The notes beneath the pieces are model-generated. The model saw only the letters and a list, made by a program, of their open reading frames with translations. It was not told the origin of the DNA and made no database searches. This document shows, piece after piece, positions 22,171 to 62,691 of a DNA stretch of 64,000 nt (its first letter is position 1; the number at the start of each line of letters is the position of its first letter). The DNA is from an uncultured bacterium (lineage in GTDB: Bacteria; Zixibacteria; MSB-5A5; CAIYYT01). The stretch lies in contig CAVSCK010000003.1 of NCBI GenBank assembly GCA_963726455.1, forward strand, positions 109,118-173,117. The letters are read 5' to 3'. A program made the position numbers and the translations under genes.

Positions 22171-22183
22171 AATGTCTCAAATT

Positions 22184-35751: not shown

Positions 35752-35759
35752 GATCGCGT

Positions 35760-37740: not shown

Positions 37741-37785
37741 TATGTCTCCTCAATCATTGTACACCCGAAACATCCCGATTATTCC

Positions 37786-42049: not shown

Positions 42050-42052
42050 CGC

Positions 42053-44869: not shown

Positions 44870-46489
44870 TCAGAGTTTGCCCTCCAAACCCAAATGTACC
44901 AGCATGCGTCCCAGCTTCTTTTCCTCGCCCATCGAAATATCAAAACGGAACGAACCGGCAGACGTCATGACAATCATCCCCACGCCAAAACCTGCCAACG
45001 GTCCGTCCTTTGACTTGGACTTAATGTAGGCATTATCACTGAACAGATGCAACATCAAGTTGCCGGCGGCATACCATTGCAGTTCGGTCGATCCGATGAA
45101 ACCCAGTCTGGCGAGATAACTATTTTCGCGATAGCCGCGAACCGTTTCGACACCGCCAACAGGTATCAACTGATCGATGGGAATAGCAGCGAAATCAGAC
45201 GTGATCTGAAAGTATTGAGCGCGCTGAAAGAGAATCAGATTGTGCCGCAGCGGCAACCAGATTTTGGCATCGGTGTTGAGATTACTGGAATAACCGTTGT
45301 TAGACACACTGCCGCTTTCGAATGACTTGCGATAAGCCGAGGTGACTTGCTGCGTAACAAAAGCGCCGCGCGTCGTGCGATGAATGTCGTTGCGACGATC
45401 ATATTGAACGTTCAGGTCAACTGCCAGCAGACGCGCCGACGGTGACGTCTGATTTTCCTGTGGCGTAATCTTGTTCCAGCGTATCGCACTACCGAGACTC
45501 CAATTCTCACTCAAGTGACAACTGGCTCCGGCCGTGGCGCTGGTGCTGTTGAAGGAAGAATCGCGAGCTTCCTGTGACAATGTGGCGCGCAAGTCGAGCG
45601 GATAGTCATCGAAATACGGCAACAGCGCGTTGAGGTTAAGTTTACGCGACAATTGATTCTGGCGCGACCAGATGAAGCCGAATTCTTCCCCGCGGCCAAA
45701 TGCATTGATCAGATTCACCGACACCTGGCCGGCGATCGTGTTGTCGGGGTTGAGATAGGCAAGTCCGTCGAAGGCGAGGTTGCGTTCATCACGCAAGGGC
45801 AGCGCGACATTTACGGTGCGGTTGAGACTTTCATAGGTGAGAGACGCTTTGCCTGATGGTTTGCAGTGGCGGAGATGACCCAGCGTTCGCTCGGACGATT
45901 CCAAATCGGTCTCGCGAAATAAGTCGCCGGAATGAAGAGCCAACCGCTTGCGCAATGGCTCTGGTTTCGTGGTCCTGATGCCGGGAAAATCAACATTGCC
46001 CACTGTGACAAGCGGCCCCTCAACTACAAGCATGTGTGCAATGATGATCGCATCGGAAATATCAAGATTCTTGATCTCTGCCTGTGCGAACGGGTATCCG
46101 TTGTTAGCATACAGGCGAGTCAACTCCTTTGTCAACTGCTCAAGACTCGATTTCGTAAGCGGCGCTGAGTGCGGCAACTCCTGCAGCAATCGCGCCGCGG
46201 TGGAGTCGGCAAGTCCTATCAGGCGAAGTTCGGAACAGGTGAAACGTTTGCCTTCGGTTATCGAGAACAGCGTATCGGCGGCGGTGATCTTCGCGGAAAC
46301 TTGTCCGAGGAAGTAGCCGTCTGCGGCATAGGCAGCACTGATCGACTTGAGATGCTGATCTACGTCACCCGGTTGCGTGCACAATTCCATCAGTACTGCG
46401 CTGCGGAAATGATGATTGCCTTCAAAGCGTACAGCCGCGTTCGCGCACGAATACAGTACAAGTACGGCGATCAAGATTCTTCGTGTCAT
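44870..46489 (-). CDS. Omp85-family outer membrane protein (surface antigen D15 / TamA-like; POTRA plus beta-barrel)
   Basis: A signal peptide, a POTRA-like N-terminal region and a C-terminal beta-barrel with alternating hydrophobic residues. About 539 aa. Confidence 0.65.
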   Translation of the reverse strand: MTRRILIAVLVLYSCANAAVRFEGNHHFRSAVLMELCTQPGDVDQHLKSISAAYAADGYFLGQVSAKITAADTLFSITEGKRFTCSELRLIGLADSTAARLLQELPHSAPLTKSSLEQLTKELTRLYANNGYPFAQAEIKNLDISDAIIIAHMLVVEGPLVTVGNVDFPGIRTTKPEPLRKRLALHSGDLFRETDLESSERTLGHLRHCKPSGKASLTYESLNRTVNVALPLRDERNLAFDGLAYLNPDNTIAGQVSVNLINAFGRGEEFGFIWSRQNQLSRKLNLNALLPYFDDYPLDLRATLSQEARDSSFNSTSATAGASCHLSENWSLGSAIRWNKITPQENQTSPSARLLAVDLNVQYDRRNDIHRTTRGAFVTQQVTSAYRKSFESGSVSNNGYSSNLNTDAKIWLPLRHNLILFQRAQYFQITSDFAAIPIDQLIPVGGVETVRGYRENSYLARLGFIGSTELQWYAAGNLMLHLFSDNAYIKSKSKDGPLAGFGVGMIVMTSAGSFRFDISMGEEKKLGRMLVHLGLEGKL

Positions 46490-49400
46490 TGGAACCTCGA
46501 AATCAATTCCGTGCGCAGGAAATAACGCCCCGGTTCGCCATGGCGAATGTCGCCCTGGCCGGTCAAACGAAACGAGAAGTTCTCGGCGAAACTGAAATCA
46601 ATCAGGATCGTGCCGCCGAAGTTCGCTCCGGTTGGAAACCCATCCGCCATCTGCAGCAGAATCGGCCGATTTGCGGCTTCGATCACCTGCAGCATGAAGA
46701 CCGTTGTCTCGATTCGCCCCCTGCCGACAAGGTTATAGTTCACCTTGGGAGTTATCCTAAGAGTCGTGGCGCGCAACGACATGGAATCCGAATTCTCACG
46801 ACCGATCTCGACGGTGGCGCCCATTTCCCAGAGTCCGCGAAAGTGCGAGCCGGCGGTGATCAGCGACCGCCTGTGAACGGTGAGATTGTAACGGCCGAAT
46901 TGTTGGTCGGACAAATTCTCGGCCTCACCGGAAATTTCGACAAAGTCGCGTTCACCTAAGCGTTGATTGAAAAGCAGTTTGAACAGCTCGTTGCCGTTGG
47001 CCTGGGGGTGCAAGACATCAATCAGGTTATCCTCACTGCGAATTCGATACGAGAATTCACTGCGCAGGCCGATTGCGCGATCATAACGTCGATAACGATA
47101 TTCGTCACTGCGCTGGCGGAACCGTTGAACTGCGCCGAAATACGCGAGCGAAGGCAGCAGCCAGCGTGTTTGGAAGCTGGTCATGTCATTTCCGATCTCG
47201 TGCAAACTTGTCTCATAGCGCAGGGAAGTCCCGGCAATCAGGAAACTCTTTGCCAGTTTGCTCAGGTCGGCGTTGATCTGAACGCGTTTTTCTGCCTCGA
47301 CCGACGGCGTCAAGGTACCCACTTGTTCGGTGACCAGTATGTAGTCGCCGTTCGATTGCGGCAGATAGACGGAATCAATCAGTACATAATCGCCCTTGCC
47401 GCTCTCGACCTTGAGATAAGTCTTGTTGGTCTGGAAACTTCCCAACCGGCTCAACCGCATATTGGCGTTCAGGTCGACAACACGCGCGATCTGTGGTATA
47501 TCGAGATTTAAGAGCCCGCTGTGATAGGTGGTCTTCTTCCCCGTCGCATCATTGAAGCGGTTGAATGAAGCATTCAGATCGACCTTGCGACTCTTCGCGA
47601 AAGTGCGATTGACATTCAATCCCAGCGTCTGTTTGCGATCCACCATATTCCATGAGTTGAGATTCTGCCAGTTCTCTCGCTGCCGAGCGGTCACGGAAAT
47701 CCCCGCGTATTCCGTTCCAAATTCGATTTCACGTTTGCTGGCGTATGTAAGCGGCTGTCCCACCAACGCAAGCTTGCGATTGTCATAGTCGACTTTGGCT
47801 GTGAGCGCGAATGGTTTAATGTCGAGCCGGTAGGTGGGCTTGATCTCGAAAAGACGATTCGACGCCAGTGAGATCCTTCGAGGACGCGTAACTCAGGTCA
47901 ACCCCGATTTTCGAGTTCGCCACCTGAACCAGTTGCGTCGAGACTCCGGCGCGCCGCGACTCGAAGCCGCTTTTCTCCGAAGTATATCCGCCTTCAATTT
48001 TCGACCGATCATGGCTCCCCAGACTGAAAGTCATGTCGCCCAGATAGCGCTGGCGGTCGCTGAGTTCCTGCTTCTGGCGCTGCCAGAGGTAATTTTCGTC
48101 TACATAGTCGAGCCGACCCAAACGGGCGAAGCCGGCTGGTAAATACTCCGCCGACAGATTGCCCTTCACTTTCTGAGATGTACTCGCGTACGCCGCACCA
48201 AAGAAACCTGCCGCAGTTGTGTTCTTGCTGTTACCGTCAGTGGAAAAGCGGTTGCGGTCGTACGACGAAACGCCCACCTCGGTCGACAACTTCAACGTTC
48301 CCGTCGGAGCGTAGTCAGATTTTGCCACCACGACCTGAGATGCTTCCGGCATGGGCAAGGTTCTGACGGGCAGGTAATTGCCTCTTCCTCTGCCGGCAAA
48401 CTGATAGCGGCCCCCGCCTAGATAGAGGTAATCCCCGCTGTCAACCTGCGTAAACGTTACACTGTAATCACCATGGCGATCTCCCGCATAAACGAAGACG
48501 GTATCGCTCAGAGAGTCGACCTGCATCGTGTAGTCACCATTTCCCTGACCTACAGAGCGCGCCCCCGGAACCACCGCTTTGGTAGGATCGTTGCCTGCCG
48601 AACGCAGAGCAGCGATATCGGTCTCGCTGAGCGTGAAGTCTTGCGGGTCGCTTCCCGCGGCAGTCAGGCCCGCATATCCGATGCCGATCTGTGCCTTGCC
48701 GTCACCAAGACTATCCGTGACGGCGCCGGTAACGAGTGTCTTGCGATATTCCAGGCGCTGATATTCGAAATCGACTCTGACACGGTCTTGGTTATCGATG
48801 GCAGTACGGCCGGTGAAATAGAGTTCGCCGCGCGTGTAATCGAGGTAATAATCATGGTCGCGTCCGCGAGTTATTGTCGCGCCGTTGAGCCAGACCGTCT
48901 CGGAGTTTTCGATTACGGCGATACCGGATTCACCGTTCTTGCCCTGCAGGCGGTACGGGCCGTTAAAGCCGTCAGTGGTGGTGAAGTTGTATTCAGTATA
49001 GTTGCCGGGTGGAACGGAGACGGATGATTCCACGGTTGCGCGGCCGGTATGGTACTTCACGCCCATACCCTGTACATTGCGGCTCATAGACAGATATCGG
49101 AAACGATCTTCCTTGAGCTGGTAGCTGCCGAAAACGCCGTTGAGATGCTGGGACTGAACTTCCAGATAGACGTTGTCCAACTCGGAGAATCTTTTGGTCA
49201 CCATCTGATTGTCGCGCAAACCGCGATCAGAAAACGTGCCCTTGACAATTACTCCGCGGCCGATATCGCCGGAGAGCGTCAGGGCGAGTCCCTGCGACAG
49301 GTTCGTCTGGCCCTTTTGGGAGACGTCGGCATAAAACGACTTCGAGCCGGAGACTTTGAGATTCGCGGTGGGCGCGGTCAGTTCTCTCGACGACGTGACC

Positions 49401-49804
49401 GGAGCCGGAGCCAAATCAGCTTCGTTGTCGCCCGTACTCGACAGGAAATCGTGTAGCGCGTAGCGACGGCCGATTATATCATAATTCAGAAATCTCACGA
49501 CTCGAATTGTGTCGCAAGCGATCTGTCCCGCCGTCAGCGTGATGACACTGTCATTGGATACGAAGTCACGTCCGCGTCTCAGACTGTCATTCCCGCAAAT
49601 CAGGATGACCGAGGAATCACCCGCGGAGGCGTATACGAAATTGACGGAGGAATCCTTGAGTGCAATACTGGTGACGATGACGATTGAAGAGACGGATGCT
49701 TGCGGATTGAGCGGCGCCGCCTGCAATCGCAGCGACAGGCATATAAGACCTACGAGGATTAAACCGGCAATAAGCGCGCGGCCTTCATTTTGCAGCAACT
49801 TCAT
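46486..49804 (-). pseudogene. Large (about 1090 aa) beta-rich envelope protein with an N-terminal signal anchor (TamB/AsmA-like, or an outer-membrane beta-barrel). It is split by a frameshift around 47767..47815 into ORFs 47816..49804 and 46486..47766.
   Basis: Continuous amphipathic beta-strand character runs across both ORFs, and they read in different frames. The gene is immediately upstream of, and co-directional with, the Omp85 gene. Confidence 0.5.
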
Positions 49805-50720
49805 AAATCATGACACGGTTGTTGCCCGTATCACACACGAACAGCTTGCCATCATTTCTGCGAGCAATGCCCGACGGAGCACTCAAATTCATCGGTCCGC
49901 TTCCCGCGCTCCCCAGCGAGGCCAGTCGCGTGCCATTCAGGTCGAACAGTAGAACCTCGCTAGTCGCCTTGTCGGTGGCAATAATCTCTTTGCCGTGAAC
50001 GACAAAGCCACCCAGCGTCTCAATACCCTGCAATTGAATTTTGCCGGCCGCGTTGCCGAAGGTGTCGAACTTGTACAGCGTTTCATCATTGCGATCATAA
50101 ACGTAAACGTCACCTTCGTCCGTGACATAAATCGCGCTGCAATGCGAGAAGCCACCGGGAGGAAGCAACTCCTGCTCGATCTTGTAATCCTTGTCCAACA
50201 CGATCACTTTGAGATTGTCGGGATCGACCAGGTACATCCGCCCCGTACGGGCATATCCGATCGCCGCTATCTTCCCAAGCGCTTGCAGGTCCGGGTTGCT
50301 GTTGAAACGCACCTCATCTGCAAATACCAGATCACGGTCGGAACGAACAATGCGATTGTTGCCCTGGTCGAGGACATAGAAATTGATCCCGCCGTCGGAG
50401 ACGATGTCGGTTGGCCGGCTCAATCCCGAAATCCCCAAACCGAAACCGCCGTTTTCTTTGAGGAACTGATACTCGGGGCCAAGTTTGACAATCCGGCTGT
50501 TACCCTGATCAACAACGTAGAGATCGTTCTGCTGATCGTACGAAATTGCCACCGGCGAGGACAAATACGAGTCACCGAGTTTACCCGAAATCTCTCCCAG
50601 ATAGCGAATCTGGCGAGGTGTCGGCTGACCAACGATCACCGGTTTGGGAGCCGGGGCACAGGCGATGAACATTGACACCGCCACAGCGAACGGCAGAAGT
50701 ATTGAAGTCCAGCGCTTCAT
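49785..50720 (-). CDS. NHL-repeat (six-bladed beta-propeller) lipoprotein
   Basis: A lipoprotein signal (MKRWTSILLPFAVAVSMFIAC) and repeated ...YVVDQGNSRIVK / YVLDQGNNRIV... NHL motifs. Confidence 0.75.
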   Translation of the reverse strand: MKRWTSILLPFAVAVSMFIACAPAPKPVIVGQPTPRQIRYLGEISGKLGDSYLSSPVAISYDQQNDLYVVDQGNSRIVKLGPEYQFLKENGGFGLGISGLSRPTDIVSDGGINFYVLDQGNNRIVRSDRDLVFADEVRFNSNPDLQALGKIAAIGYARTGRMYLVDPDNLKVIVLDKDYKIEQELLPPGGFSHCSAIYVTDEGDVYVYDRNDETLYKFDTFGNAAGKIQLQGIETLGGFVVHGKEIIATDKATSEVLLFDLNGTRLASLGSAGSGPMNLSAPSGIARRNDGKLFVCDTGNNRVMIYEVAAK

Positions 50721-50721
50721 C

Positions 50722-51462
50722 TTAGAACCTGGCCGACAGACTGACCTGCCAGCCACCGTCCGGCAATGGTTTCAAATCCACTCCACCGAAACCGGATTCA
50801 ACTTGCCGGTTGTGACGTTTTGCGCTCCAATAGGCATCGGCGGCGGAAATCAGATGGTTGGCGATAATTAGCCCCAGCGAGAAGTTCGATTTGCGATAGT
50901 AGGATTTGCTGTCGTTCTTGAGACTGCGGTATTTCAGCCGGGCGTCAGTCGATTGCCAATTCCAGAAGTAGGTCTTGGTGTCCGGGAAATATACCCTGTT
51001 GTGGTCATAAGCGCCGGCAACCTTGTTGTATTCCTCACGCGAATCATAGAATCCAAGGATATCGAAGAAGCGATCATCCTTGCCCTGAACATCCGCGCCC
51101 GCCGCAGTTGCAGCATACAACCGATAATCGTCGCTGCGCCAGTTTCCCAGGTGTCGGAATGATATGAACGATGCCCAGAACCCAACTTCCGACAGGAAAA
51201 ACACTTTGGACTTCAGTCTGGCTCCGGAATAGTGTTCGCCTGCGCCGGGGAGCACAAATGACATCAGAAACGCCCGCCACGGCTCCTTTAGATTGACTCG
51301 ATTCTTTTCCTGAACTTCGGAAAAGCCGGGTGTCTTTTGTTTCTGCTGGTCAACTTGTCCAACTCCTACCGCAAACAACTGCGACTGCGGCAGTTTGATC
51401 TCGGATCGAGCGGTCGCGCCGGTGAACAACAGTAAGGTAAGGATCAGAAAGGTATTTTTCAT
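50722..51462 (-). CDS. Uncharacterised signal-peptide protein, tandem paralog A (possibly DUF5683-like)
   Basis: Shares the motifs S[FV]VLPG[AS]G[EQ]xY and IANHL[IL]SAxDAxxSAKR[HY]N with the adjacent gene. Confidence 0.6.
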   Translation of the reverse strand: MKNTFLILTLLLFTGATARSEIKLPQSQLFAVGVGQVDQQKQKTPGFSEVQEKNRVNLKEPWRAFLMSFVLPGAGEHYSGARLKSKVFFLSEVGFWASFISFRHLGNWRSDDYRLYAATAAGADVQGKDDRFFDILGFYDSREEYNKVAGAYDHNRVYFPDTKTYFWNWQSTDARLKYRSLKNDSKSYYRKSNFSLGLIIANHLISAADAYWSAKRHNRQVESGFGGVDLKPLPDGGWQVSLSARF

Positions 51463-51466
51463 ATCT

Positions 51467-52339
51467 TCAAAAAGTATAGGTGAAAATGAGTTTTGGAATC
51501 TGGTGTCCTTCGTAGCGCACCATTTTCGCCCGAACCGTCATCTGCGAGAAAGTATCCTGCTTCTTATTATAGCGCTTGGCCGACAGCGCCGCATCAAATG
51601 CCGAAAGCAGGTGATTGGCGATTGCCACGATGGCGCCGGTCTTGGCTTTGGTGAAGAAGTTATTCGCGGTGGCGCGGTCATTCAGGTATGATACCCGCGA
51701 CGGGGAATTATCCTTGCCGGTCAGGTAATCAGTATCCTTCCAGCCGTAACGGAACTGGTCGTACTTCCCTATCATTTCATAGTACTGCTGGGTTTTGGTG
51801 GTCGGCAGATGGTGTGTGAATCGTGTCGCTTCGCCGTTAACCGAGATTTCAAAGGTGTCGGAGGTCACACCATAGGTTTCGATCAGCCAGTCGGTATACT
51901 GTTGGGCCGACCAATTTTGGTCGGCGAAATTGTTATATGCCGTGGTCTTGCTTTGACCCTTATTGTGATTGACGAGCCACTCCGTCCAGGAAACGATCTC
52001 TATGCCCAGAAACAGTCCGGCCTTGATTTTGGAGTTATTGTAGAACTGCCCAGAGCCAGGGAGCACCACGGAATATAAGAAGGCCTTATTTGGCGATCGG
52101 TAGTTCGTATTGAGCAGGTCGGAACTGAGCGGGAAATCCTCGAAATCGGAAGCCGCAAAGTTGACGCCGGTATACTCCTGCAACTGGCGATAGGTTTTGA
52201 GTTCATCCTTCTGCAGGAACTTGTCGATTTCGCCCGCCGGAACCGGCGGTGAAGCGGCCAGGATCTGCGCCGAGACCAAAAGAACTGAAAATGCAATGAG
52301 CCAAGACCTCAACATGAATTTATCCTCCGAAAAAGACAT
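51467..52339 (-). CDS. Uncharacterised signal-peptide protein, tandem paralog B
   Basis: The same conserved motifs as paralog A (SVVLPGSGQFYNN; IANHLLSAFDAALSAKRYN). Confidence 0.6.
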   Translation of the reverse strand: MSFSEDKFMLRSWLIAFSVLLVSAQILAASPPVPAGEIDKFLQKDELKTYRQLQEYTGVNFAASDFEDFPLSSDLLNTNYRSPNKAFLYSVVLPGSGQFYNNSKIKAGLFLGIEIVSWTEWLVNHNKGQSKTTAYNNFADQNWSAQQYTDWLIETYGVTSDTFEISVNGEATRFTHHLPTTKTQQYYEMIGKYDQFRYGWKDTDYLTGKDNSPSRVSYLNDRATANNFFTKAKTGAIVAIANHLLSAFDAALSAKRYNKKQDTFSQMTVRAKMVRYEGHQIPKLIFTYTF

Positions 52340-52342
52340 ATT

Positions 52343-55300
52343 TCACTTCACAACGGCGACCGTGCAACGTTTGCGATCGCCTGACGATGTTTCGAGCTGG
52401 CAGAAATATACTCCCGATGCCAGCAAAGAACAATCAAAGGGGAGTTCGTTATCAGTGCCGGCGGCTGCGGCCAGATGCGTGTTGTATACCATGTCGCCGG
52501 CGACATTATAGAACTTGACCGTCACATCCCCTGACTCCCGAACCGTAAATCTTATCGTCGTCTTGTCCGATGCCGGATTGGGATAATTGTATATGTATCC
52601 AATGGCATCAGCAAGTTGCGTGGGATCAGGTAAGGGTTTTACGTAAGAGCCAAAATTGCGCGGACTGCCGTAAGAATTGTTCCAGTCTACCTTGGCGGGT
52701 GATTGCACGGCCAGAGCGTTGATCGACCCCTCTCGTGATAGCGCAAACAGCGCGGCAGTGGAACCACGGCGTACCAGCACGATCGGTGACGCGAGCGAGC
52801 CGCCCACGGATATTGGATAATCCGCAAGGCGATCACCCAGCAAGTTGAAACCGGCCACTTCACCGTTTGCCGTGCCGACGAAGACTTCCATCTTGCCATC
52901 GCCGTCAATGTCAGCCAATACAGGCGCCGTAGTCACCGGACCAGTAGGTATCATCGGGTTAACCGTAATCGGGAAATTGCTGACCGGCGTGCCGTTTTGG
53001 TTGTAAGCGAAAATGCGATTACTTCCGCAGAAAAGAATTTCGATCGAGCCATCACCGTCGATGTCACCAAGTGCGATCTCTGAGGTAATTGTCTCGCCAA
53101 CCTGCGTGGTAGATGTCTTACCGGCGTAATTGATGAGCAATCTTCCATCCGCATAGACTTCAGCAGTCTCGTAGACGCCATTGCGATCGAAATCAGCGGC
53201 GGCGGCACCGACTATTGCATGCGCGGAATCGGTCGCAACCAGGCCTCCGCCTGGGGCAACAAACTCGAAATGATGCAGTGAATCGGTCATAACTCGGAAC
53301 GGAATCGCATTTTGCTCTTTGAGTATCCGGTTGCCGCTCTTGTCGAAGACAAGTTTCTGGCCGTCAGAGGTGTAGACCAGAGTTTCCAGACCGTCAACTG
53401 CGTTATCGTAATCGAGAATGATCGGCGCAATGGCTGCTTCGCCGTCAATTGGCTGATTGAACAACGTAATCGCCTCGCCCTCGAAGTTGGTTGACGCTGT
53501 TGTAAAGCAGACCAGACTGCCGGCGGATGTTACACCCAGTATCTCGGCGAAACCGTCGCCGTTGATATCAGCGACCGCCAGACCATGCAGGAACCGCTGC
53601 CGCGAATCTATCTTGCCGAGCACAGCCAGTGTATCATAGACGTTTCCCGAACCGTAGAGTACTTCCCGCTGGACGACTATCAAACTGTCGGGATTGGCAC
53701 TGAATAGTGGCGAGCCGTCGAACTTATAGGCGAGCAGAAAGGGTCCCGACGAAGTGAGAATCTCGTCACTGCCGTCGCCGTTGATGTCAGCCGCAACCAG
53801 AGGCAAAGAATTCGCGAAAATCTGATTCGGCCAACCCGGCAGGCGTCCGTCGATATGAACGCTGCAAGTCATGATCAACAGGGATGCCGAGATATTTCCG
53901 ATCGTAATCCCCGTGTAGGCATTGTTGTTGGCAATCGTAGGCGGATTGGTGTTTGGTCCGAATGTCGGACTGTTGTTGATATCGAACATGTCCGCTTGTT
54001 CACCGTAACCAGAGTAGTAGTATCCGCCGAAATCCACGATGCCGTTAGCTTCCTCAAGCGTCAGGAAACGGTGATGATTGTCCCATTTGACGGGATCAGA
54101 CGCGAAATTCCAGACTTGTAATCTGTTGTCGTGGAAATTGTCGATGCCGTTGCCGTCGTAGTCTAGACGCGCAACTAATTCATCGATATGCCAGATCAGC
54201 ATTCCCGAACCGGGGATCAAGTAATCGTATTCGCGATTGCATTGCGGTTTGTCACGATCAGTATTGCGGGGCCACATAAAGACGTTGGTAAGGCTGTCAA
54301 CCTGAAGCCCCGTGATTTCCTGATTATCAATATCAGTACGCCGATTTTCGATCAAGTAATACTCATCCGGATTGATCGGAACCATGAGAACCTGGTTGTA
54401 ATTCGAGTCAAGTTCCGCAGCGACCACTTTGATCTTGTTCGCCGAAGTGACTTCCACAATGTCGACAAACCCAAGATAGGCGCGCGACCAGGCGTCGGGA
54501 TAAACCGGCATGACACCTGACACCAGCACCGGTATGGTATCGCCAAAGTTGATGTTCACTCCGAAGCCGTTGTAATCCATCAGCGAAAAATCACCGACCT
54601 GGGTCATAGCGGTGCGGGTGTCATACAGATCGACCAGACCAAGTTGATGGCCGAATTCGTGCCCCATCACCGCATTGAGAGCGGTAACCCTGTTATCCTG
54701 TGAGGCAGTTTCCGGCATGATGACGGCGTCGCTGACCATGACTCTCCCGTCTTCCAGCGAAAACGCTCCGCCACCCAGCTTGACATAGCCGGTATACAGA
54801 TCGGAGCGGAGTATCCGGCCCCGCGAATGCAAAGTTGTTTTGCTGATCGGAGCCGGCATGGAAAATTATATAAGCGTCGTAGCGGTCCTGCCCGGCTATC
54901 GAATCGTATAGCGACAGTTCAGGATCAATATCCGCCGTATGCATGGCATCGTAAACCAACCGCGTCAGACCGACTACCGGTTCCACCGCGCCGTAGTGCG
55001 CCATCGACGAATCAAGCTGATAAGCCGAATCGACATTTCGCGGATATACATCGTACTCAATTTTCAGCCGGCCATTGGAAACCACATCATAATAGGTCGA
55101 CAGCGCTTTCAAATGTTTCTCGAAGTAGCTGCGATTATGCGGAGCCGGATCGATAAGATATCCTTGCTGCGCATAGAACTCAGCTTTGGTTCGCATATCG
55201 AAGTTGCCGTTGCCCGTCGTGAGCGGATCGTCCGGAACTTCCTTGCGGAAATTGACTCTGATCGCCAGCACGCGGATGACCTTGGGACTCATGGGCGACA

Positions 55301-55505
55301 GCGCATGCAGAGGCATGCGATACTTGCCGGAGTAGTCGAGCCCCAGCAGGTTCCGGTCAGACACCTGATCCGCCAGTCCGGGTTTTGGTTGCTGACTGCT
55401 CGGCTGCTTGGATTTCATTTCGAGCATACCGGCAACAGCGACCGAGCCAAACAGACAGGCGGCCACAAATAGGACTATTATGACAGAACGAGACATCCTT
55501 TTCAC
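52343..55505 (-). pseudogene. M6-like (immune-inhibitor-A type) zinc metalloprotease with FG-GAP/VCBS beta-propeller repeats and a T9SS C-terminal sorting domain. It is split by a frameshift near positions 54700-54860 into ORFs 54693..55505 and 52343..54859.
   Basis: A signal peptide in the N-terminal ORF; HEFGHQLGLVDLYDT (HExxH) in the C-terminal ORF; repeated DINGDGSDEIL / DIDGDGKMEVF FG-GAP motifs; and a T9SS CTD-like C-terminus (...TIRFTVRESGDVTVKFYNVAGDMV...GVYFCQL...). Confidence 0.7.
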
Positions 55506-55508
55506 CGC

Positions 55509-58500
55509 TTACATCTTTACCGTCAACGAAGTTCTCAACGTATTTGCCAACGGCAGATTGTTCGACGAAGGGATATATGCAAAATCCAGCCGGTATCTTC
55601 CCTTGTACTGGAGTCCGACGCCCAACGTCGGGGTCTTAACCTGCCCTTCCTGATCATAGATATATCCGGCACGCAAGGCAAGTAGCGAACCGTACCAATA
55701 TTCCAGGCCGACGTTTTCGATGGCCTGTTTCATTTCTTCAGAGAAACCATCTCCTAGCGACGTGAGCATCTTGTTGACTTCACCGACTATGGTCAGCCGA
55801 TTGTATGGCGAATCGAGCAGGCGGTATGCGAAACCAACCGCGAGGTTGCGCGGAAGAGCGTCCGACTGCGCAGCGTCGATATAGGACATGTTCGGACCCA
55901 GGTTGGTCACGACAACGCCGATCCGTAGCTTTCTGGTCATCGTATAGAGAATACCGCCCTCGGCCGCGAATGATGTGCCCTCGCCGCGGCCAACTTCCTG
56001 ACCGGCGCCGACTACTGACAGACGGCTGTAAATCACCTTGGCCGACAAACCGACGGCCAGATTCCGCGAGGCACGGGTTCCATATGATAACGTGAACGCA
56101 ACGTCGAACGGATTGATGGTTCCGGTCGGCTCCGATGACGTTTCTCCGGTGGTCACGATTGAACCGTAGGAAAGAAACGTGATGTTGGCGCCCAGCGTAC
56201 CCAGTGATCCGACTGGGTGTACATAACCAAGGAATTCGTAGTAGAGATCGGGGGCAAGATCAGGCAGCCAGTTGGCATGAGTGAAACTGAGCTCTTTCTT
56301 GCCGTGCGCAAATATCGTTACGCGATCGGCGGTCGCAAACCAGATTTCGCCTGCTTCACCGACGATGTCTTTGGTATTAGTCCGATTCAGGCCTTCGTGG
56401 TAATAACGTTCCCACCGTCCTCCGGAATATGAGAATGTTCCATACAACGAAGCGACGTACAACTTGCCACCCTGGTCATAGAGCGAGTTGATCGGGCTTC
56501 CGGCTGGATTGGCATATACATAGACAACGTTTCCGACCGGAAGAGGCCCTTCTTGAATGGTGTTCTTTCTCTTGATCAGACTTACAAACGCAGCGACTCG
56601 GTCGGGATCTTCCACTTTGAGATACTCTCGGACCAATTGGTCAAGGGTCATTTCCTTTTCGACCTTGACAGCTTTGTAGCCGTAACTGTACCACGACTTG
56701 CCATCGAAGCGCTTGATGCCTAGATCGGTGCCGACCCACAGATTGTTGTCCCCGTCCATACTGAGCGCGGTAATGTTGCCCTCAAATTCAGGAAGAAAAG
56801 GCACGTCAATCACGACGCCGGCTTTGGGGCTGGTCGTAAACTCGGGATTGTCCATCCCGTACTTTGCCGCCTGCAATTTAACCTTGACCATGTCGATGTT
56901 CCCGTATGCCTTGCTGAACACTGACAAGCAAGTGTCGTTAACTGCAGAGGTAACTTTGAAAGAATTGGTCCAGGCAACGCCGTCGAAATAGAATAGATCT
57001 TTGTCCGAGGCCGCCCAGGCAAGTCTATCATTCTTGACCGCAATATTCTTGATCGGGAAAGAGGTGACGCCTTCGGCAGCGCCGAAACGTGCCCACTTTC
57101 CTTCTCTGAGGACATCGAGTCCCTTATCCGTGCCGACCCACAGTTGGCCGTGCTTCGGGGACTTGACACACCAGATGACGGCGCTTGAATCGGTGCCGGT
57201 GGCAAACTTCTCCCAGTTGCGTCCGTTGTAGCGGTAGAGACCATTATCCGTGGCTACAAACAGAGTCTTGCGATCGACGGCGAGATCGTTAATAGCTCCG
57301 CCGAAGACGGCTTTGAATGGGAACCTGATCTGTGCCGGCAACTGATCGGTGATGGATTTTTCCAAAGCAAACACCAGACGGTCGGTTTCGGCCTGGGTAA
57401 GTGCCGAATCAGCGAAGGCCTTGTCGAAAGTGCTCGTGAAGATATCCAGTTTTTCCTGGTTCAATTGACAGTTCGTCCAGGCATCTTCGAGACGGCCAAG
57501 ATTCTTGATCACTTCCTCGCGATTTTCGAAATCGGCCGGCAATGCGTTCTGAACCTTATCACGAATTTCGAGGAGACGTTCACGCGAGATCGTGTTGTTG
57601 GCGCGGGCGACCATATCCAGCCGCGACTTGATGATATTTTCGTCTCCAGTGCCTAGCGCACGCGACACGATATCGCTGAGCTTGTCTCCCTTGCGCGGCA
57701 TCACGATGTCGCCGTCCTGCCACTTGGTGCCGTCGAAACGCGCCAGACCAAAGTTGGTGATAGCCCAGATGTCGTAATGCGTGTAATTGTCGTTCGGGAT
57801 GCTGTTTTCCATCACAGCGATCTTGTCGATATTTTGCTCCCACGGCACTTCCCATCCCTGCCACATAGTCAACAAAACCGCATAGGGAACCAACATCTGC
57901 TGCGGACGCGCCGATGTTTCACAGGCAACAACCGCGCCGTCGATTTCCGTGAGCTCCTCCGCCGATACTGCGTTATCAGCGATGGCAGCGGCGACTTTGT
58001 CTTTGACCGCGGGAAATGCAGCCGCATTGAACCGCAAATCCTGCCAGAAGATCACCATCTTCTCGAAAGTGGCGTTGATCTTCTCGCTTGCGGCAGCGTC
58101 CTTACCGGCAGCCGCCAGCAGTTCCAAACGCAGACCATTGATGTCGTCGAACGAAACACCGGTGTTTGCCAGACATATCTGACGAACAGCCGATTTGAAT
58201 CTTTCCTTGTCAACTGTGGAAGCGCGACGAGCGAGATTCGCCAGAATCGTGCGTGAAGTGTCAACGCCGATTTTTTCCGCCGGTACCCAGGTGCTATCGA
58301 CAAAGCGGCTGATTTCATTGCCTCTGATTTGCCACGAAGCAAACTTCTCAAAATAAGTCGGAGCCAATTTGCCCCGGAAGGCCTGCTCTGCCAGATCGCG
58401 CAAATGCGTGTCGTCCGTCAGCTTGAACTGATACCAGTTGTGTGCCAACGGATACTCGCCCAGTCCGGCCGGATTCCAGTGCGTGGTTGACGCGTCGTCG

Positions 58501-58658
58501 GCTATTGCCACAAACGCTTCACCCATACCGGCACTGCGGGCATTGGGGGCGATGCGAAGGAATAGAACCGCGGCGTCACTTACCGCGCACTCTGCTTCCG
58601 GCGCCAGAAATCCTGCCCACGAGCTGACGATCAGCAGAAGAACCAGGAATCGTCTCAT
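55509..58658 (-). CDS. Giant PorV/FadL-like outer membrane protein (1049 aa) with a large internal insertion containing two-component-regulator propeller (Reg_prop) repeats. It is a putative T9SS PorV homolog.
   Basis: After the signal peptide, the N-terminus LRIAPNARSAGMGEAFVAIADDASTTHWNPAGLG matches the FadL/PorV first-strand signature. The C-terminus ends in a beta-barrel strand (...LRTSLTVKM). The internal region carries LWVGTDKGLDVLREGKW / LWVGTDLGIKRFDGKSWYSY Reg_prop-like repeats. The gene is adjacent to porU. Confidence 0.55.
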   Translation of the reverse strand: MRRFLVLLLIVSSWAGFLAPEAECAVSDAAVLFLRIAPNARSAGMGEAFVAIADDASTTHWNPAGLGEYPLAHNWYQFKLTDDTHLRDLAEQAFRGKLAPTYFEKFASWQIRGNEISRFVDSTWVPAEKIGVDTSRTILANLARRASTVDKERFKSAVRQICLANTGVSFDDINGLRLELLAAAGKDAAASEKINATFEKMVIFWQDLRFNAAAFPAVKDKVAAAIADNAVSAEELTEIDGAVVACETSARPQQMLVPYAVLLTMWQGWEVPWEQNIDKIAVMENSIPNDNYTHYDIWAITNFGLARFDGTKWQDGDIVMPRKGDKLSDIVSRALGTGDENIIKSRLDMVARANNTISRERLLEIRDKVQNALPADFENREEVIKNLGRLEDAWTNCQLNQEKLDIFTSTFDKAFADSALTQAETDRLVFALEKSITDQLPAQIRFPFKAVFGGAINDLAVDRKTLFVATDNGLYRYNGRNWEKFATGTDSSAVIWCVKSPKHGQLWVGTDKGLDVLREGKWARFGAAEGVTSFPIKNIAVKNDRLAWAASDKDLFYFDGVAWTNSFKVTSAVNDTCLSVFSKAYGNIDMVKVKLQAAKYGMDNPEFTTSPKAGVVIDVPFLPEFEGNITALSMDGDNNLWVGTDLGIKRFDGKSWYSYGYKAVKVEKEMTLDQLVREYLKVEDPDRVAAFVSLIKRKNTIQEGPLPVGNVVYVYANPAGSPINSLYDQGGKLYVASLYGTFSYSGGRWERYYHEGLNRTNTKDIVGEAGEIWFATADRVTIFAHGKKELSFTHANWLPDLAPDLYYEFLGYVHPVGSLGTLGANITFLSYGSIVTTGETSSEPTGTINPFDVAFTLSYGTRASRNLAVGLSAKVIYSRLSVVGAGQEVGRGEGTSFAAEGGILYTMTRKLRIGVVVTNLGPNMSYIDAAQSDALPRNLAVGFAYRLLDSPYNRLTIVGEVNKMLTSLGDGFSEEMKQAIENVGLEYWYGSLLALRAGYIYDQEGQVKTPTLGVGLQYKGRYRLDFAYIPSSNNLPLANTLRTSLTVKM

Positions 58659-58696
58659 TCTTAAGACTCCTTGTATTTGGGTAAAGACAAAATCAT

Positions 58697-61600
58697 CTAC
58701 TTCATTACCACTAACTTGCTGGCTGACATAATCCTCTTGTTATCCTGACTATCGGCAGGTTTGGCCGATAGTTGGAAGATGTAAACGCCGTTGGCGATGA
58801 TATCGCCGTCGGTATCGCGCAAGTCCCAATGAATCCCGTCGTGGTAACCCGAGGATTGTGGGAGATTGCTCAAAGACAAGATCTCCAGTCCGGAGACCGT
58901 GAAAACTTTCAACGTGACGTCAGAGGCGTCATCGGAGAGGATATAGGCAAATTGGCATTTATCGGCTACCGGATTCGGGTAGCAGAGCAACTGCGCGATT
59001 TCCAGGCCGCTGGCACTGCTTACTTTGAAGGCGATTTCTTTCTGGCTCGAATTATTGGCTGAATCCCACGCCTTGGCCCGCAGCCGATGCTCGCCCGGGT
59101 TCAGTTTCGGAAGCGTTATAACCGCTTTTCCCCGTTGGTAGCTGCCGGGGTTGTACACGAAGCTGTCGGTCAGTGCGTACGTCATCTCCCGGCTGTCATC
59201 GATCACCAGCTCAATTCCATGACCGATATCACCACTGAGGTTTATTCCGAGAGAGTCGAACAAGTCCAGCGTTACTTTGGCATCCTGTGAAATCTGGGCG
59301 TTGTCACTTTTCGCCGGATCGTCGGCAAAATAGACGGCAAGATCAGGTCCGGTAGTGTCGTTAACACTGGTGTTAATGCTACCGATCGCGATCGGAAACA
59401 CGTAGCCGGCGGCGCCGCTGTTGGCCGAAACCGCATACCCGCTGATGCGTGCTCTAGTGCCGCCGTAGCTCACGTCCTTGGGCACTACAAATTTGAGATT
59501 GAACACGCCGCTGGTCACGTCAACTTTACCGCGATATATCTCGGGACCATACTGCACATAACTTGAGTCAGTCGTAGCGGTGTACTGAAAACGGCGAGTC
59601 CTTTCGTTGTCGAACACGCTTACCGTAGCGGTGCCGCTGAAGCCACTCTGTAGCGCGCCGTTCTTGTCCTCAACCTGTCCGGCCAATTCGGTCACTGTCA
59701 AAGCAACCAGCGAATCGGGCTGGAAGGTCACGAAGTTGATCTGGTCGGGAGCAACACCCAGTCGCGTCATCGGATCGCCGATGTAAATATATTTTCTATC
59801 GTTGTCGCGAGCATCCCAGCTTCCCTGTCGCAACAGTTTGGCAACATAGACGGCCTCGGCAATCGTGTAGTCTTTGCCGTTAAAGAGTTGGGCAAAGGCC
59901 GCCTGATTGAAAAGGAAATTGGGCCGCGAGAATACCAGTCTCGTCGCCGAAACGGTTCCGACCGCGCCACCCGACGGATATCGCAGCAGTTCCTCAGCCA
60001 TACCTTCAGACAGCGGGTCGTCAAAAAAGCCGATCGAACAGGACGCGTTAAAGATGAGCGGCAGACGATCGGAGTTGTGCAGTTGCGGAATATCCTGTAT
60101 ACGTCGAAACATTCGCTCGTCCGCCCAGAGATTAGGATTGCCGTGGCCGATGTAATTCACCAGCAAGGTGCCGTTGTTAATCGAGCGTATGATCGCCTCG
60201 CGTGCCGCCGGTTTTTCGTTACCGACAAAGGGATAGTCGACGCCATAGACTTTGTTGAGATCGAATTTGGGTGGAATACTTCCCGAGGCCAACTGCTCCG
60301 AGTCGACCGTATGCTGAATCTCCGGGCCGGAGCCGGGATGATTGAGGTCGTCGGCAATCAGTGTGACCAGATTGCGCCACGAACCATTATTGGCCGCCGC
60401 CTCGTAGTTCATCATCTTTTGAGCGACAACCTGAAACTCGCCGGCTGTTTTGACCGGCCAACGGGCGATCACCATATCGACTCCCCGATCGGTCGGATAT
60501 GAATTATCGGCATCAAGTTCGTATGGTTCGCCGAAGTAGACAAAGTTTTCGTCGGAGATGGTCGAGTCATTGGGCACGATATAAGGCGGCACGTAATTGA
60601 CTCCGCCTTTTCCCATGTCGTTGCGGAAATCATATACTCCGTCGCCAGCCAGCAGGCAGAACGATGGACGCGCGCCGCTCCAGTTTCCGTATGCGTAGCG
60701 CAGAAAATCGCGGATGGCGATCGGATCCATCATGCCGCCGGAAAATTGCGCGTAAACATCCGAAATGCGGACGACGCGGACTCTGATGCCATCATGATTG
60801 GCACGGTAATTCGCAAAGTCGACCGCCTGGCTGTAGAAGTTGTCATGTGCGATGATGATCAGGTCGGCGCCGTTGCTGGACGACCGAATGTCATCGATCT
60901 GAGTTGCAACAATCGAGAATGGCTTTCTGATTGCGGCGTCGGTGGCCAATGCGAAAACTTTGCCTCCAGCGACAGTTGGAGTCGAGACAAACTCGACAAA
61001 GTCGCTTCCATATAACGGGGCAACCAACTTCTGATTCCCGATATCCGTCACATCCAACACAGCGGTTGTCAGTGAGCCACCAGCTATTTGATAATTATGA
61101 GAAACATCACTGGTATCGCCGAATAGTACCAGTTCACCGGTAGCCGGCAAAATCACCGGCCGCTCGTAATTGATCTCTATGTAATCCGTCAATGTCCCAT
61201 ATGGAGAAGCGGTAAGCGTCAATCCGATTTGATTCAACGCCGAGTCAAACCGATCCGAGTGGAAATAGAAGAATGGTGTACGCGTCGAATCAGGTGTGAG
61301 GTCGGTACCGTTTAGGCGCACCGCCATTTGTCCGGAGTACCCCCGAACCCTGAAATTCTGCCAGGCGCCTTCAACTGGAGCGGGAAGATTAAGAAAAATA
61401 TCCACCGTCGGATTGTCCGACCAGTACCAGTGGAAGTAATCCTCAATCACTCCTCCGTGGCTGGCGAGAACCTTTTCGTCTTCAAAGTGCAGAGGATCGA
61501 CGAATGTCCGAACCGTATCGGTGGCAGCGGTTTCTGTGCCGTTGACCGTGGCCATGCGTCTGGGACTCCAGCCAAATGATCCGCCGTACGTCAAATAGAA

Positions 61601-62545
61601 CACGTTGCGGTCGCCATAGGGATTCAGACGATAGGTCAGTGCATCAGACCAATCCCAGAAATCCGGGCCGTTGGCGTAGAAGAGAATGTAGTCCTCACCG
61701 CCGAAAACTCCGTCCTCCTCGCCGTGAACCGCAATGGCCACTTCCGCAAGCGAGTCCCGCGCGCTGGAGTTGGGAATTGGCAGTGTTTTTCCGCCGGCGC
61801 TGAACAGACGCAAACTGCGCGGATCGACCGTTGCGACATCGATGCCTGCCGTCGACAAATCGGTGCGGGTAATCTTGTAAATGCCTCTCGTCTTAATTGC
61901 TATCCTCAGCCAGTTCGTCGACTGTGAAAACGGATTATATGTGGTTCCCTGTGCGGAGACTGAAGTCTTCGGATACCAGGTTTCCCTCTGATCGGAATTG
62001 ATTGCAAGATTGGCAATTACGTTATCCAGCGGTCCGTCCGGACGCGAAGAACTGGTTTCTGGTATGCCTTCGAACTGTATGTGGACGTCTGCTCCAACTA
62101 CCTTGCGAAGCTCGGAACCTTGGCTCCCAGCTTCAGGGATGAGAACCGAACAAAGAGCCTTGGAGCGGACAGTGACAACCTTGCCAAGGCGTATCTTCGC
62201 AAGTGAATCCGGAGGTGCGGTTGCCGTACCGGCTGCACTTCCGAGATTCAGCGAACTGCTTATCAGGCGCGGAGTTGTGCCTCGCGGCACCAGGAACATG
62301 ATTACATGTGTATTGACAAAGGATGTGTCATCAACCGGAACTGCCACTTGCGATGCCTTGTTTAGATCACCGGCAACACTGGCTTTCCCTGACTTCGAGA
62401 TGGAATCCCCAAAGGACACGCCGAACGACAGGTCGGTGGCAGAAGAAGCAACCACTGACACGGCTGACTGCGTATTTGCGAATAGCTGGTTTGTGCCTAA
62501 TATGAGATATGATATGAGAAGGGTTAACGCGCAGAATTGTGACAC
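58697..62545 (-). CDS. porU: T9SS sortase PorU (C25 gingipain-like peptidase with a CTD)
   Basis: A 1282-aa protein with a C25-like catalytic region (...IGHGNPNLWADERMF...NASCSIGFFDD...) and a C-terminal T9SS sorting domain (CYPNPVADKCQFAY...GVYIFQLSA...). Confidence 0.7.
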   Translation of the reverse strand: MSQFCALTLLISYLILGTNQLFANTQSAVSVVASSATDLSFGVSFGDSISKSGKASVAGDLNKASQVAVPVDDTSFVNTHVIMFLVPRGTTPRLISSSLNLGSAAGTATAPPDSLAKIRLGKVVTVRSKALCSVLIPEAGSQGSELRKVVGADVHIQFEGIPETSSSRPDGPLDNVIANLAINSDQRETWYPKTSVSAQGTTYNPFSQSTNWLRIAIKTRGIYKITRTDLSTAGIDVATVDPRSLRLFSAGGKTLPIPNSSARDSLAEVAIAVHGEEDGVFGGEDYILFYANGPDFWDWSDALTYRLNPYGDRNVFYLTYGGSFGWSPRRMATVNGTETAATDTVRTFVDPLHFEDEKVLASHGGVIEDYFHWYWSDNPTVDIFLNLPAPVEGAWQNFRVRGYSGQMAVRLNGTDLTPDSTRTPFFYFHSDRFDSALNQIGLTLTASPYGTLTDYIEINYERPVILPATGELVLFGDTSDVSHNYQIAGGSLTTAVLDVTDIGNQKLVAPLYGSDFVEFVSTPTVAGGKVFALATDAAIRKPFSIVATQIDDIRSSSNGADLIIIAHDNFYSQAVDFANYRANHDGIRVRVVRISDVYAQFSGGMMDPIAIRDFLRYAYGNWSGARPSFCLLAGDGVYDFRNDMGKGGVNYVPPYIVPNDSTISDENFVYFGEPYELDADNSYPTDRGVDMVIARWPVKTAGEFQVVAQKMMNYEAAANNGSWRNLVTLIADDLNHPGSGPEIQHTVDSEQLASGSIPPKFDLNKVYGVDYPFVGNEKPAAREAIIRSINNGTLLVNYIGHGNPNLWADERMFRRIQDIPQLHNSDRLPLIFNASCSIGFFDDPLSEGMAEELLRYPSGGAVGTVSATRLVFSRPNFLFNQAAFAQLFNGKDYTIAEAVYVAKLLRQGSWDARDNDRKYIYIGDPMTRLGVAPDQINFVTFQPDSLVALTVTELAGQVEDKNGALQSGFSGTATVSVFDNERTRRFQYTATTDSSYVQYGPEIYRGKVDVTSGVFNLKFVVPKDVSYGGTRARISGYAVSANSGAAGYVFPIAIGSINTSVNDTTGPDLAVYFADDPAKSDNAQISQDAKVTLDLFDSLGINLSGDIGHGIELVIDDSREMTYALTDSFVYNPGSYQRGKAVITLPKLNPGEHRLRAKAWDSANNSSQKEIAFKVSSASGLEIAQLLCYPNPVADKCQFAYILSDDASDVTLKVFTVSGLEILSLSNLPQSSGYHDGIHWDLRDTDGDIIANGVYIFQLSAKPADSQDNKRIMSASKLVVMK

Positions 62546-62546
62546 T

Positions 62547-62691
62547 GTTTTATCGACCTTATATTAGAGCATTCGAGTATAGCTGCCGGAGTTACTGATG
62601 TAAACAAAAAATCCAGCTACCCAACGTGCTCTGGTTTTCGGATGTACTTCTGCCAAGGCAGAGTTACACTTTACCTATCGGTCGATAAAAC
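62547..62691. repeat. Perfect 12-bp inverted repeat (GTTTTATCGACC ... GGTCGATAAAAC) flanking 121 bp of AT-rich DNA, directly abutting the porU start codon
   Basis: Read directly at 62547..62558 and 62680..62691. Confidence 0.5.

Follow-up and report, generated by a model that had tools for sequence, protein, structure and literature searches.

PorV plays a central part in type IX secretion, in which it takes over cargo at the translocon and brings it to the PorU sortase. In FadL-type barrels the hatch segment lies within the lumen and exits at the periplasmic mouth. In the Bacteroidota a tether role of the kind proposed below falls to separate proteins, through PorE (a propeller plus OmpA_C peptidoglycan binding) and through the contacts that PorV makes with SkpA/SprE and with the PorK/N ring. 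PorE combines a periplasmic propeller with a peptidoglycan-binding domain at the outer-membrane portion of the T9SS (type IX secretion system) (PMC7192894, PMC12773672) and co-purifies with attachment complexes (PMC12365241). In inverse autotransporters such as intimin and YeeJ a periplasmic LysM domain sits ahead of the outer-membrane barrel and binds peptidoglycan (PMC5595812). The literature still asks how the PorV barrel receives energy and position from the motor and rings in the periplasm (PMC10994853, PMC12365241). The canonical PorV proteins (F. johnsoniae, PDB 6H3I/8GL6 chain F; P. gingivalis PorV/LptO) are about 400 aa long, and in them strand 1 of the barrel follows the NPA segment after only 2-6 residues; the Zixibacterial protein described here has 1049 aa, with approximately 713 residues between these same two elements.

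Results

The window, by which we mean the whole 64,000-nucleotide stretch of DNA that was analysed, contains a gene cluster whose first member is porU (58697..62545; 1282 aa); this and all features given below lie on the minus strand. The porU product matched the T9SS_sortase profile NF033707 at 720 bits (cutoff 420), with residues 208-1280 covering profile positions 3-1094 of 1095, and Peptidase_C25 at 281 bits. Its C25 peptidase domain comprises residues 563-929, and an Ig-like/CTD-like domain is found at the C-terminus. In the related locus L006, upstream genes run divergently from porU. A spacer of 38 nt separates the porU stop from long porV (55509..58658; 1049 aa plus stop), which has an AAGGAG Shine-Dalgarno sequence 8 nt 5' of its ATG.

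Next in the cluster is a gene for an M6-like metalloprotease (52343..55505) that carries FG-GAP repeats as well as a C-terminal T9SS sorting domain of type A. In the window this gene is broken by a one-base frameshift near 54803-54806; the two pieces matched NF052323 at 98 and 249 bits, Por_Secre_tail scored 43 bits, and the intact L006 orthologue (1053 aa) matches two reading frames of the window. Because of the sorting domain seen in its sequence, the M6-like protein is likely a cargo of the T9SS. The remainder of the conserved cluster (44870..52339) consists of two DUF5683 genes (51467-52339 and 50722-51462), an NHL propeller gene (49785-50756), orf662 (47816-49804), orf426 (46486-47766) and a gene for an Omp85/POTRA protein (44870-46489). 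The DUF5683, NHL and Omp85/POTRA genes were assigned by family match; orf662 and orf426 gave no significant Pfam or NCBIfam match.

The long protein belongs to the PorV/PorQ family. Its NF033709 match, at 244 bits against a cutoff of 90, falls into two stretches, approximately residues 30-69 and then 783-1049 (the latter covering profile positions 41-326), and when the intervening insert was deleted the remaining 338 aa matched at 260 bits in a single stretch over essentially the full model (2-326 of 326). Pfam PorV (PF19572) scored 80 bits against a cutoff of 27, and phmmer aligned the protein to the solved F. johnsoniae PorV with E = 6e-27. The PorV equivalog model NF033710, which appears to have been trained on Bacteroidota, scored the native protein at 185 bits and the insert-free version at 201, below its cutoff of 250. 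PorV is nevertheless the best equivalog by a wide margin, as PorV2 reached 41-55 bits and PorQ 60-72 (NF033711: 59.5 native, 72 insert-free, cutoff 220). The PorZ model NF052228 gave 22 bits, where PorZ is marked by a score of at least 260 and by a pair of seven-bladed propellers ahead of a T9SS CTD. The relation to FadL is at the superfamily level only: Foldseek matches to FadL and TbuX were weak (E 2e-6 to 3e-5), and FadL/Toluene_X (PF03349) matched the N-terminal NPA segment alone at 16.4 bits, short of its 29.7-bit cutoff. In functional terms PorV is defined by a gene beside porU, binding of type A CTD cargo and anchoring of PorU, and long porV adjoins porU in every related locus with upstream flank.

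The AlphaFold2 model (mean pLDDT 82.9, pTM 0.75) has the 14-strand FadL-like barrel of the solved PorV fold. The N-terminal region, residues 1-69 (58452..58658), aligns with residues 7-64 of PorV 6H3I_F and consists of a signal peptide (residues ~1-24, approximate boundary) followed by a PorV/FadL-type NPA segment (WNPAGLGEYPL); residues 44-67 read GMGEAFVAIADDASTTHWNPAGLG. This segment is the most conserved part of the family, with invariant columns that include S27, L32-R35, R41, M45-E47, D54, D55, N62-G67 and Y69-L71. Since residues 19-53 are of low confidence in the model (pLDDT below 50), we have assumed the hatch-in-barrel arrangement from knowledge of the FadL family. The barrel itself, residues 783-1049 (55509..56312), ends in ...SLTVKM. 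Strand 1 comprises residues 789-796, and turns of 3-4 residues follow the even-numbered strands (817-819, 863-866, 907-910, 950-952, 990-992 and 1019-1021); we read these short turns as facing the periplasm. Long loops of the barrel include 921-937 and 965-979.

The insert of approximately 713 aa, residues 70-782 (56313..58451), is a seven-bladed Reg_prop-class beta-propeller that helical bundles and a pair of LysM-like elements interrupt. Reg_prop (PF07494) repeat matches were obtained at 29-32 bits (cutoff 20.4), and the modelled fold is seven-bladed and resembles that of the propellers in hybrid two-component sensors (HTCS). By DSSP on the model, blade 1 plus a six-helix bundle make up residues 272-450 (57309..57845), with the helices within 327-435, ahead of blade 2. 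Residues 81-271 (57846..58418) form an extra beta-strand-plus-helical-bundle unit that hhalign identifies as a tandem duplicate of 272-450 (probability 99.6%, E = 3.6e-24, 170 columns); this unit is restricted to the ~1047-aa class and is missing in all aligned homologues of 857-955 aa. The helical bundles gave no significant Pfam or NCBIfam match.

LysM-like element 1, residues 569-620 (56799..56954), lies between blades 4 and 5 and has a beta-alpha-alpha-beta topology; element 2, residues 664-714 (56517..56669), lies between blades 5 and 6 and contains N699, which is invariant in the family. The LysM scan covered individual homologues from a family alignment of 59 members, together with precomputed Pfam annotation. 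At the columns of element 1, Pfam LysM (PF01476, cutoff 20.9 bits) matched the homologues P0054 (39.8 bits), P0062 (44.9) and P0045 (26.4), and at those of element 2 it matched P0068 (22.4 bits); a precomputed PF01476 match is present in about 26 of the 120 homologues listed. An hhalign comparison shows homology between the two elements (probability 97.7%, E = 2.5e-12). A model of the 560-720 fragment shows beta-alpha-alpha-beta twice (pLDDT 91.7), and its nearest PDB neighbours in Foldseek are mostly LysM proteins, none of them significant (all E > 0.1). The long PorV of the window itself gave no Pfam LysM match even at E <= 10, and the LysM-like elements in it may no longer bind glycans.

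These results agree in part with a preliminary description made from the sequence alone. That a PorV-family barrel of about 2.5 times normal size adjoins porU is borne out by the coordinates and by the NF033707 and NF033709 matches, the NF033709 and PF19572 scores lying well above anything expected by chance, and the Reg_prop scores confirm a propeller inserted in the PorV-like protein. The signatures quoted at the two ends are present; the insert, put at ~650 aa, is real but somewhat longer; and its propeller is accompanied by the pair of LysM-like elements and by one or two bundles of helices, which had gone unmentioned.

As to where the insert sits, the phmmer alignment to F. johnsoniae PorV breaks exactly between PorV residues 64 and 67, and the same split, at profile position 41-45, is found in every length class (734-1057 aa). 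The insert thus separates the N-terminal NPA/hatch segment from strand 1 and does not part two strands of the barrel. Residues 193-199 of F. johnsoniae PorV are described as a loop, periplasmic by experiment, that touches SkpA (PMC10994853). This loop aligns to residues ~903-909 of the long PorV, that is, to the turn between strands 6 and 7; with this turn in the periplasm, counting back places the start of strand 1 at the periplasmic face. In the model, the insert opens with a strand (74-79) about 5 residues past the NPA segment, and the last propeller strand (779-784) stops 4 residues short of strand 1. With both of its ends joining the barrel's periplasmic rim, the module would hang into the periplasm. 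Judging from strand counting in the predicted model and one published loop assignment, a periplasmic location is most likely.

Its relatives speak for the long PorV as an architecture that is real and under selection. Full-length homologues number more than 100 (734-1057 aa, 34-77% identity), and the exact protein is also encoded on a 7.9-kb Logan contig. Species-representative genomes yielded 563 matching stretches, and the best 77 loci are nearly all from Zixibacteria, including RBG-1; across the Zixibacteria the fused module spans 450-715 residues at one fixed site in PorV. A survey of porU neighbours, which the preliminary description had proposed, showed long porV beside porU throughout the related loci with upstream flank. 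The order porU, long porV, M6-like gene, DUF5683, DUF5683 is invariant in related loci, with the NHL gene usually next, and the order downstream of the M6-like gene is shared by all related loci with long enough flank. A tblastn search with the barrel as query revealed no second PorV-like gene in the window and approximately 1.4 Mb of related-locus flanks. Homologues are already in public databases, automatically annotated as 'PorV/PorQ family protein'. Among the papers covered by our literature search, none links PorV, the T9SS or type IX secretion with Zixibacteria; consistent with the earlier view that the architecture is undescribed, there is no describing paper that we could find, although the sequences themselves have been deposited.

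Discussion

We favor, as the somewhat more probable scenario, that the long PorV acts as PorV carrier and as anchor for PorU and bears, in its module, a periplasmic tether or a platform for docking that probably binds peptidoglycan. In this reading the type IX secretion/sorting system of Zixibacteria has the protein as its outer-membrane barrel of the PorV type, with long porV co-transcribed with porU and the PorU sortase as its presumed partner. Its chain runs from the signal peptide through the NPA hatch and the ~713-residue module to the 14-strand barrel, and the module would anchor the PorV-PorU attachment unit on peptidoglycan, by way of the LysM-like elements, and/or on periplasmic parts of the T9SS. 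Support for peptidoglycan binding and for the tether role is moderate to weak.

A peptidoglycan-anchored PorV is hard to square with the picture drawn for Bacteroidota, that of PorV as a carrier travelling between translocon and attachment complex. A bolder version of our scenario, which we regard as doubtful, is that the Zixibacterial PorV is a fixed, wall-anchored hub whose propeller directly contacts the periplasmic T9SS machinery, so that the jobs of PorE and of the contacts that PorV makes with SkpA/SprE and with the PorK/N ring are merged in one chain. If this were true, nature would have performed a 'fusion experiment' that reveals the periplasmic partner to which PorV has to be coupled for cargo release and hand-over to the sortase.

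It is also conceivable, if unlikely, that the periplasmic module is mainly a receptor for a ligand or partner as opposed to a structural tether, either binding a glycan (for example, the precursor of the PorU glycolipid anchor) or capturing a cargo CTD or periplasmic T9SS protein for hand-over to the translocon or sortase. The Reg_prop propeller of hybrid two-component sensors provides a model for glycan binding, but HTCS sensors have two propellers per chain and the long PorV has one, no ligand-binding residues could be identified in the module, and the embedded LysM-like elements favor peptidoglycan over a lipid-linked glycan. Receptor and tether functions overlap, and both could hold. We consider it still less probable that the propeller is displayed at the cell surface, in line with the preliminary description's suggestion of an extracellular loop and of a shuttle/attachment component fused to a putative ligand-binding propeller. 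An extracellular propeller could be a ligand-binding or PorZ-like part of the attachment complex, the protein then amounting to a fusion of a PorV/PorQ barrel with a propeller like that of PorZ. PorZ does have seven-bladed propellers of the Reg_prop class and is held on a PorV/PorQ-family barrel, the 22-bit PorZ match lies within the insert, Foldseek matched PorZ 5M11 (E = 3e-7, 15% identity), and LysM and Reg_prop domains are both capable of binding extracellular glycans. Against this, the insert precedes strand 1 and strand parity puts the junction at the periplasmic face.

There remains the concern, also raised at the outset, that a PorV gene and a separate propeller gene were joined by an assembly or sequencing error. 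The one-base frameshift in the adjacent M6-like gene shows that the assembly is not error-free, yet we give this explanation next to no weight. Hatch and strands lie N- and C-terminal to the insert, and a head-to-tail fusion cannot yield such a split barrel; moreover, the same architecture recurs with conserved length classes in more than 100 independent assemblies. Together with the conserved gene order and the single-stretch match of the insert-free protein, this led us to rule out an assembly fusion.

Returning to the tether scenario, the presence of a module hard-wired onto PorV across the phylum suggests that periplasmic coupling is a basic need that can be satisfied by fusion. The long PorV calls into question the assumed need for a freely diffusing PorV and offers a defined domain for partner tests, and it does so within a conserved porU-led cluster outside the Bacteroidota, where most of the T9SS literature sits.

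There is precedent for several aspects of this architecture. In the PorZ/PorQ pair, as in the long PorV, a Reg_prop-class propeller is in physical association with a barrel of the PorV/PorQ family. PorZ, however, is secreted to the surface as a protein of its own that has two propellers and a CTD, the long PorV module is most likely periplasmic, and the long PorV falls short of both equivalog models (22 of 260 bits for PorZ, 60-72 of 220 for PorQ). In the Bacteroides HTCS sensors BT4663, BT4673 and BT3049, the periplasmic sensor domains have two propellers plus a Y_Y_Y domain, are anchored in the inner membrane and stand ahead of kinase domains, whereas the long PorV has a single propeller, broken by LysM-like and helical inserts, on an outer-membrane barrel. 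The inverse autotransporters (intimin, invasin, YeeJ) also have an outer-membrane barrel preceded by a periplasmic domain, in their case LysM, but theirs is a 12-strand type Ve barrel with a single LysM, no propeller and a strictly N-terminal periplasmic domain, while the module of the long PorV is inserted after the hatch. Finally, PorE, a P. gingivalis lipoprotein made up of TPR, WD40 propeller, CRD and an OmpA_C-like peptidoglycan-binding domain, would be the functional analogue of the proposed tether, with no detectable sequence relationship to it: PorE is a separate lipoprotein with OmpA_C and a WD40-like propeller, whereas in the long PorV the module is fused to the barrel and built from LysM-like elements and a Reg_prop propeller.

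Results

PorU and a complete but interrupted PorV barrel

Both open reading frames of the preliminary description are present on the minus strand, porU at 58697..62545 (1282 aa) and long porV at 55509..58658 (1049 aa), separated by a 38-nt spacer, with a Shine-Dalgarno sequence (AAGGAG) lying 8 nt 5' of the long porV ATG. The first gene encodes a PorU sortase of full length (NF033707, 720 bits, cutoff 420; Peptidase_C25, 281 bits). The second contains the N-terminal motif GMGEAFVAIADDASTTHWNPAGLG (residues 44-67) and the C-terminal end ...SLTVKM that had been quoted for it, and the proposed profile check places it in the PorV/PorQ family (NF033709, 244 bits, cutoff 90; Pfam PorV, 80 bits, cutoff 27). 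The NF033709 match falls into two pieces, residues ~30-69 and 783-1049 (profile 41-326), and the Reg_prop repeats expected between them were found (29-32 bits versus a cutoff of 20.4).

In a phmmer search of PDB sequences the sole match was Flavobacterium johnsoniae PorV (6H3I chain F, E = 6e-27), with query residues 5-65 aligned to PorV 7-64 and 783-1047 to PorV 67-393; therefore, about 715 residues stand in place of two PorV residues. When residues 72-782 were removed, the 338-aa remainder fitted the family profile unbroken (2-326 of 326, 260 bits). In these alignments the barrel is complete and the insertion clean. The insert-free protein is closer to PorV than to PorQ or PorV2, scoring 201, 72 and 55 bits, respectively, against the equivalog models, the first of these being below the PorV equivalog cutoff of 250 bits.

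Structure of the insert

An AlphaFold2 model of long PorV built on 59 family members had a mean pLDDT of 82.9 and a pTM of 0.75, and was poorly defined only at residues 19-53, in the hatch region. From its DSSP secondary structure, as opposed to its coordinates, we infer seven propeller blades in the insert (277-319, 444-485, 495-525, 538-570, 629-659, 723-751 and 762-784, with a closing strand at 74-79). Between blades 1 and 2 the model has a six-helix bundle (residues 327-435) with no Pfam or NCBIfam family match. Residues 81-271 duplicate 272-450 in tandem (hhalign probability 99.6%, E = 3.6e-24) and are missing from the 857-955-aa class of homologues.

The propeller is interrupted by two LysM-like beta-alpha-alpha-beta elements (569-620 and 664-714) that are homologous to one another (hhalign probability 97.7%). 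The corresponding columns of homologues pass the Pfam LysM cutoff (up to 44.9 bits versus 20.9), and a precomputed LysM match was present in approximately 26 of the 120 homologues listed. Long PorV of the window itself gave no Pfam LysM match, its elements being too diverged, and they may be degenerate. A separate model of residues 560-720 reached a pLDDT of 91.7; its nearest PDB neighbours were mostly LysM proteins, all non-significant (E > 0.1). Some homologues have 36-96 extra aa within the first LysM-like element, near query residue ~608, and some have 28-65 extra aa near ~907 and ~971, which we read as two external barrel loops.

Side of the membrane

The preliminary description had suggested that the propeller might sit in an extracellular loop. 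This was not borne out, as the insert lies between the conserved N-terminal NPA segment and strand 1 and not between two strands. The model barrel reads as 14 strands, with turns of 3-4 residues after even strands and longer loops after odd strands, a pattern typical of turns in the periplasm and loops on the outside. The hatch of FadL-type barrels, which bears the NPA motif, exits the lumen at the periplasmic mouth. Independently of the model, a loop of F. johnsoniae PorV (residues 193-199) is reported to be periplasmic and to touch SkpA (2024 translocon paper, PMC10994853). These residues map by the phmmer alignment to query ~903-909, the turn between strands 6 and 7, and counting back from a periplasmic turn there, strand 1 (789-796) would begin at the periplasmic face. 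The same count carried forward puts the C-terminus in the periplasm, where, to our knowledge, that of every outer-membrane barrel lies. Four residues separate the end of the final propeller strand from strand 1, and the first propeller strand starts ~5 residues after the NPA segment; given the face of strand 1 and the hatch exit, both ends of the insert would therefore meet at the periplasmic rim. The insert is thus predicted to be periplasmic.

Distribution and synteny

More than 100 full-length relatives (855-1057 aa, 34-77% identity) were recovered from 5.8 billion proteins, the named ones being 'PorV/PorQ family protein' entries from Zixibacteria. In a set with a single genome for each GTDB species, a relative is encoded in 563 stretches; of the best 77 loci nearly all belong to Zixibacteria, among them the founding RBG-1 genome and one complete chromosome. 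The survey of porU neighbours that had been suggested found long porV adjoining porU in every locus with enough flank, in the order porU, long porV, M6-like, DUF5683, DUF5683 and mostly then NHL, beyond which come orf662, orf426 and an Omp85/POTRA protein. The number of full-length relatives and the shared synteny rule out a fusion of two genes by assembly error.

Searched exhaustively with phmmer against 1.84 billion representatives, the insert alone matched 68 clusters at E <= 1e-30. In nearly all of them the protein is 730-1050 aa long and the insert begins close to residue 70; weaker matches were generic Reg_prop propellers. In all ten shorter or offset members examined (734-1002 aa), a PorV-family barrel is likewise interrupted at the same point of the profile. 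Many loci of the same nine-gene synteny were labelled 'uncultured Ignavibacteria' by their submitters (L002, L003, L007, L008, L011-L014, L017 and others), and one, L048, 'Terriglobales'. Because bona fide Zixibacteria MAGs have the same architecture, the submitters' labels are likely to be coarse or wrong.

The porU cluster and its surroundings

Nine genes occupy 44870-62545 on the minus strand (porU, long porV, M6-like, two DUF5683, NHL propeller, orf662, orf426 and Omp85/POTRA); neighbouring genes adjoin or overlap, and every related locus with flanks reaching that far has them in this order. Neither orf662 nor orf426 had a family match. We consider the cluster probably to be one cell-envelope operon.

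The M6-like gene (52343-55505, minus strand), directly downstream of porV, encodes a likely T9SS cargo protein with a Por_Secre_tail match (43 bits, type A CTD) and an HEFGH zinc motif, its best NCBIfam match being named 'inactivated metalloprotease'. It has a one-base frameshift near 54803-54806: the intact 1053-aa orthologue of the related locus L006 aligns in one frame over residues 1-233 and in another over 235-1053. Since most related loci have the gene unbroken, the break reflects either an indel from sequencing or recent pseudogene formation.

Upstream of porU, the intergenic minus strand at 62647-62692 carries a 22-nt noncoding element, GGTTTTATCGACCGATAGGTAA, which holds the perfect palindrome TATCG-AC-CGATA and is followed after ~7 nt by a hairpin whose stem varies in sequence among loci with pairing kept. 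The element occurs with at most 3 mismatches in 13 of 13 loci with upstream flank (the clade of at least 58% identity), always single-copy, on the porU strand and upstream of porU. More distant Zixibacteria lack it, and Rfam gave no match; it may serve the operon as an operator or as a 5'-leader element. At ~63110-64000, in a region with a dip in GC, a divergent plus-strand gene extends past the window end; its orthologue in L006 is the 467-aa gene that lies upstream of porU there.

No second PorV-like barrel was detected in the window or in ~1.4 Mb of related-locus flanks, and no other T9SS core genes were recognisable elsewhere in the window. The window also contains a Bat-type aerotolerance operon (BatA-like VWA protein, BatD and MoxR-like AAA ATPase; 33931-43039, minus strand), an AcrB-family pump (25824-28937), BshC (24209-25846) and a minus-strand selenocysteine machinery cluster (18935-22278) comprising tRNA-Sec (22185-22278), selA (20788-22170) and selB (18935-20800).

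Discussion

We regard long PorV as this system's PorV, i.e. cargo carrier and PorU anchor, because all defining barrel traits are kept and the gene is, probably, co-transcribed with porU and a type A CTD cargo. The added module, read as periplasmic, would most likely anchor the PorV-PorU unit to the cell wall and/or offer a docking surface for periplasmic T9SS parts. If the tether idea is true, long PorV would be static and not a diffusing shuttle. Still in the periplasm, the propeller might instead be a receptor for a glycan or a partner, as HTCS sensors and PorZ would suggest by analogy; we think this unlikely, and the receptor and tether readings are mutually compatible.

Public databases already contain long PorV proteins, labelled with a generic family name. 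The T9SS literature cited here gives PorV only as a ~400-aa barrel, and our literature search found no paper joining PorV, T9SS or type IX secretion with Zixibacteria. As far as can be told, the sequences are known but the architecture and topology have so far gone undescribed.

There is precedent for a barrel-attached periplasmic LysM as proposed for long PorV: in intimin and YeeJ, LysM on the periplasmic side of an outer-membrane barrel binds peptidoglycan (PMC5595812). In the Bacteroidota, PorE combines a propeller and a peptidoglycan-binding domain in one protein (PMC7192894), and attachment complexes, with which PorE co-purifies, rest on the PorK/N ring (PMC12365241). Jobs comparable to those proposed for the long PorV module are done there by separate proteins, namely PorE, the SkpA contact of PorV and the PorK/N ring.
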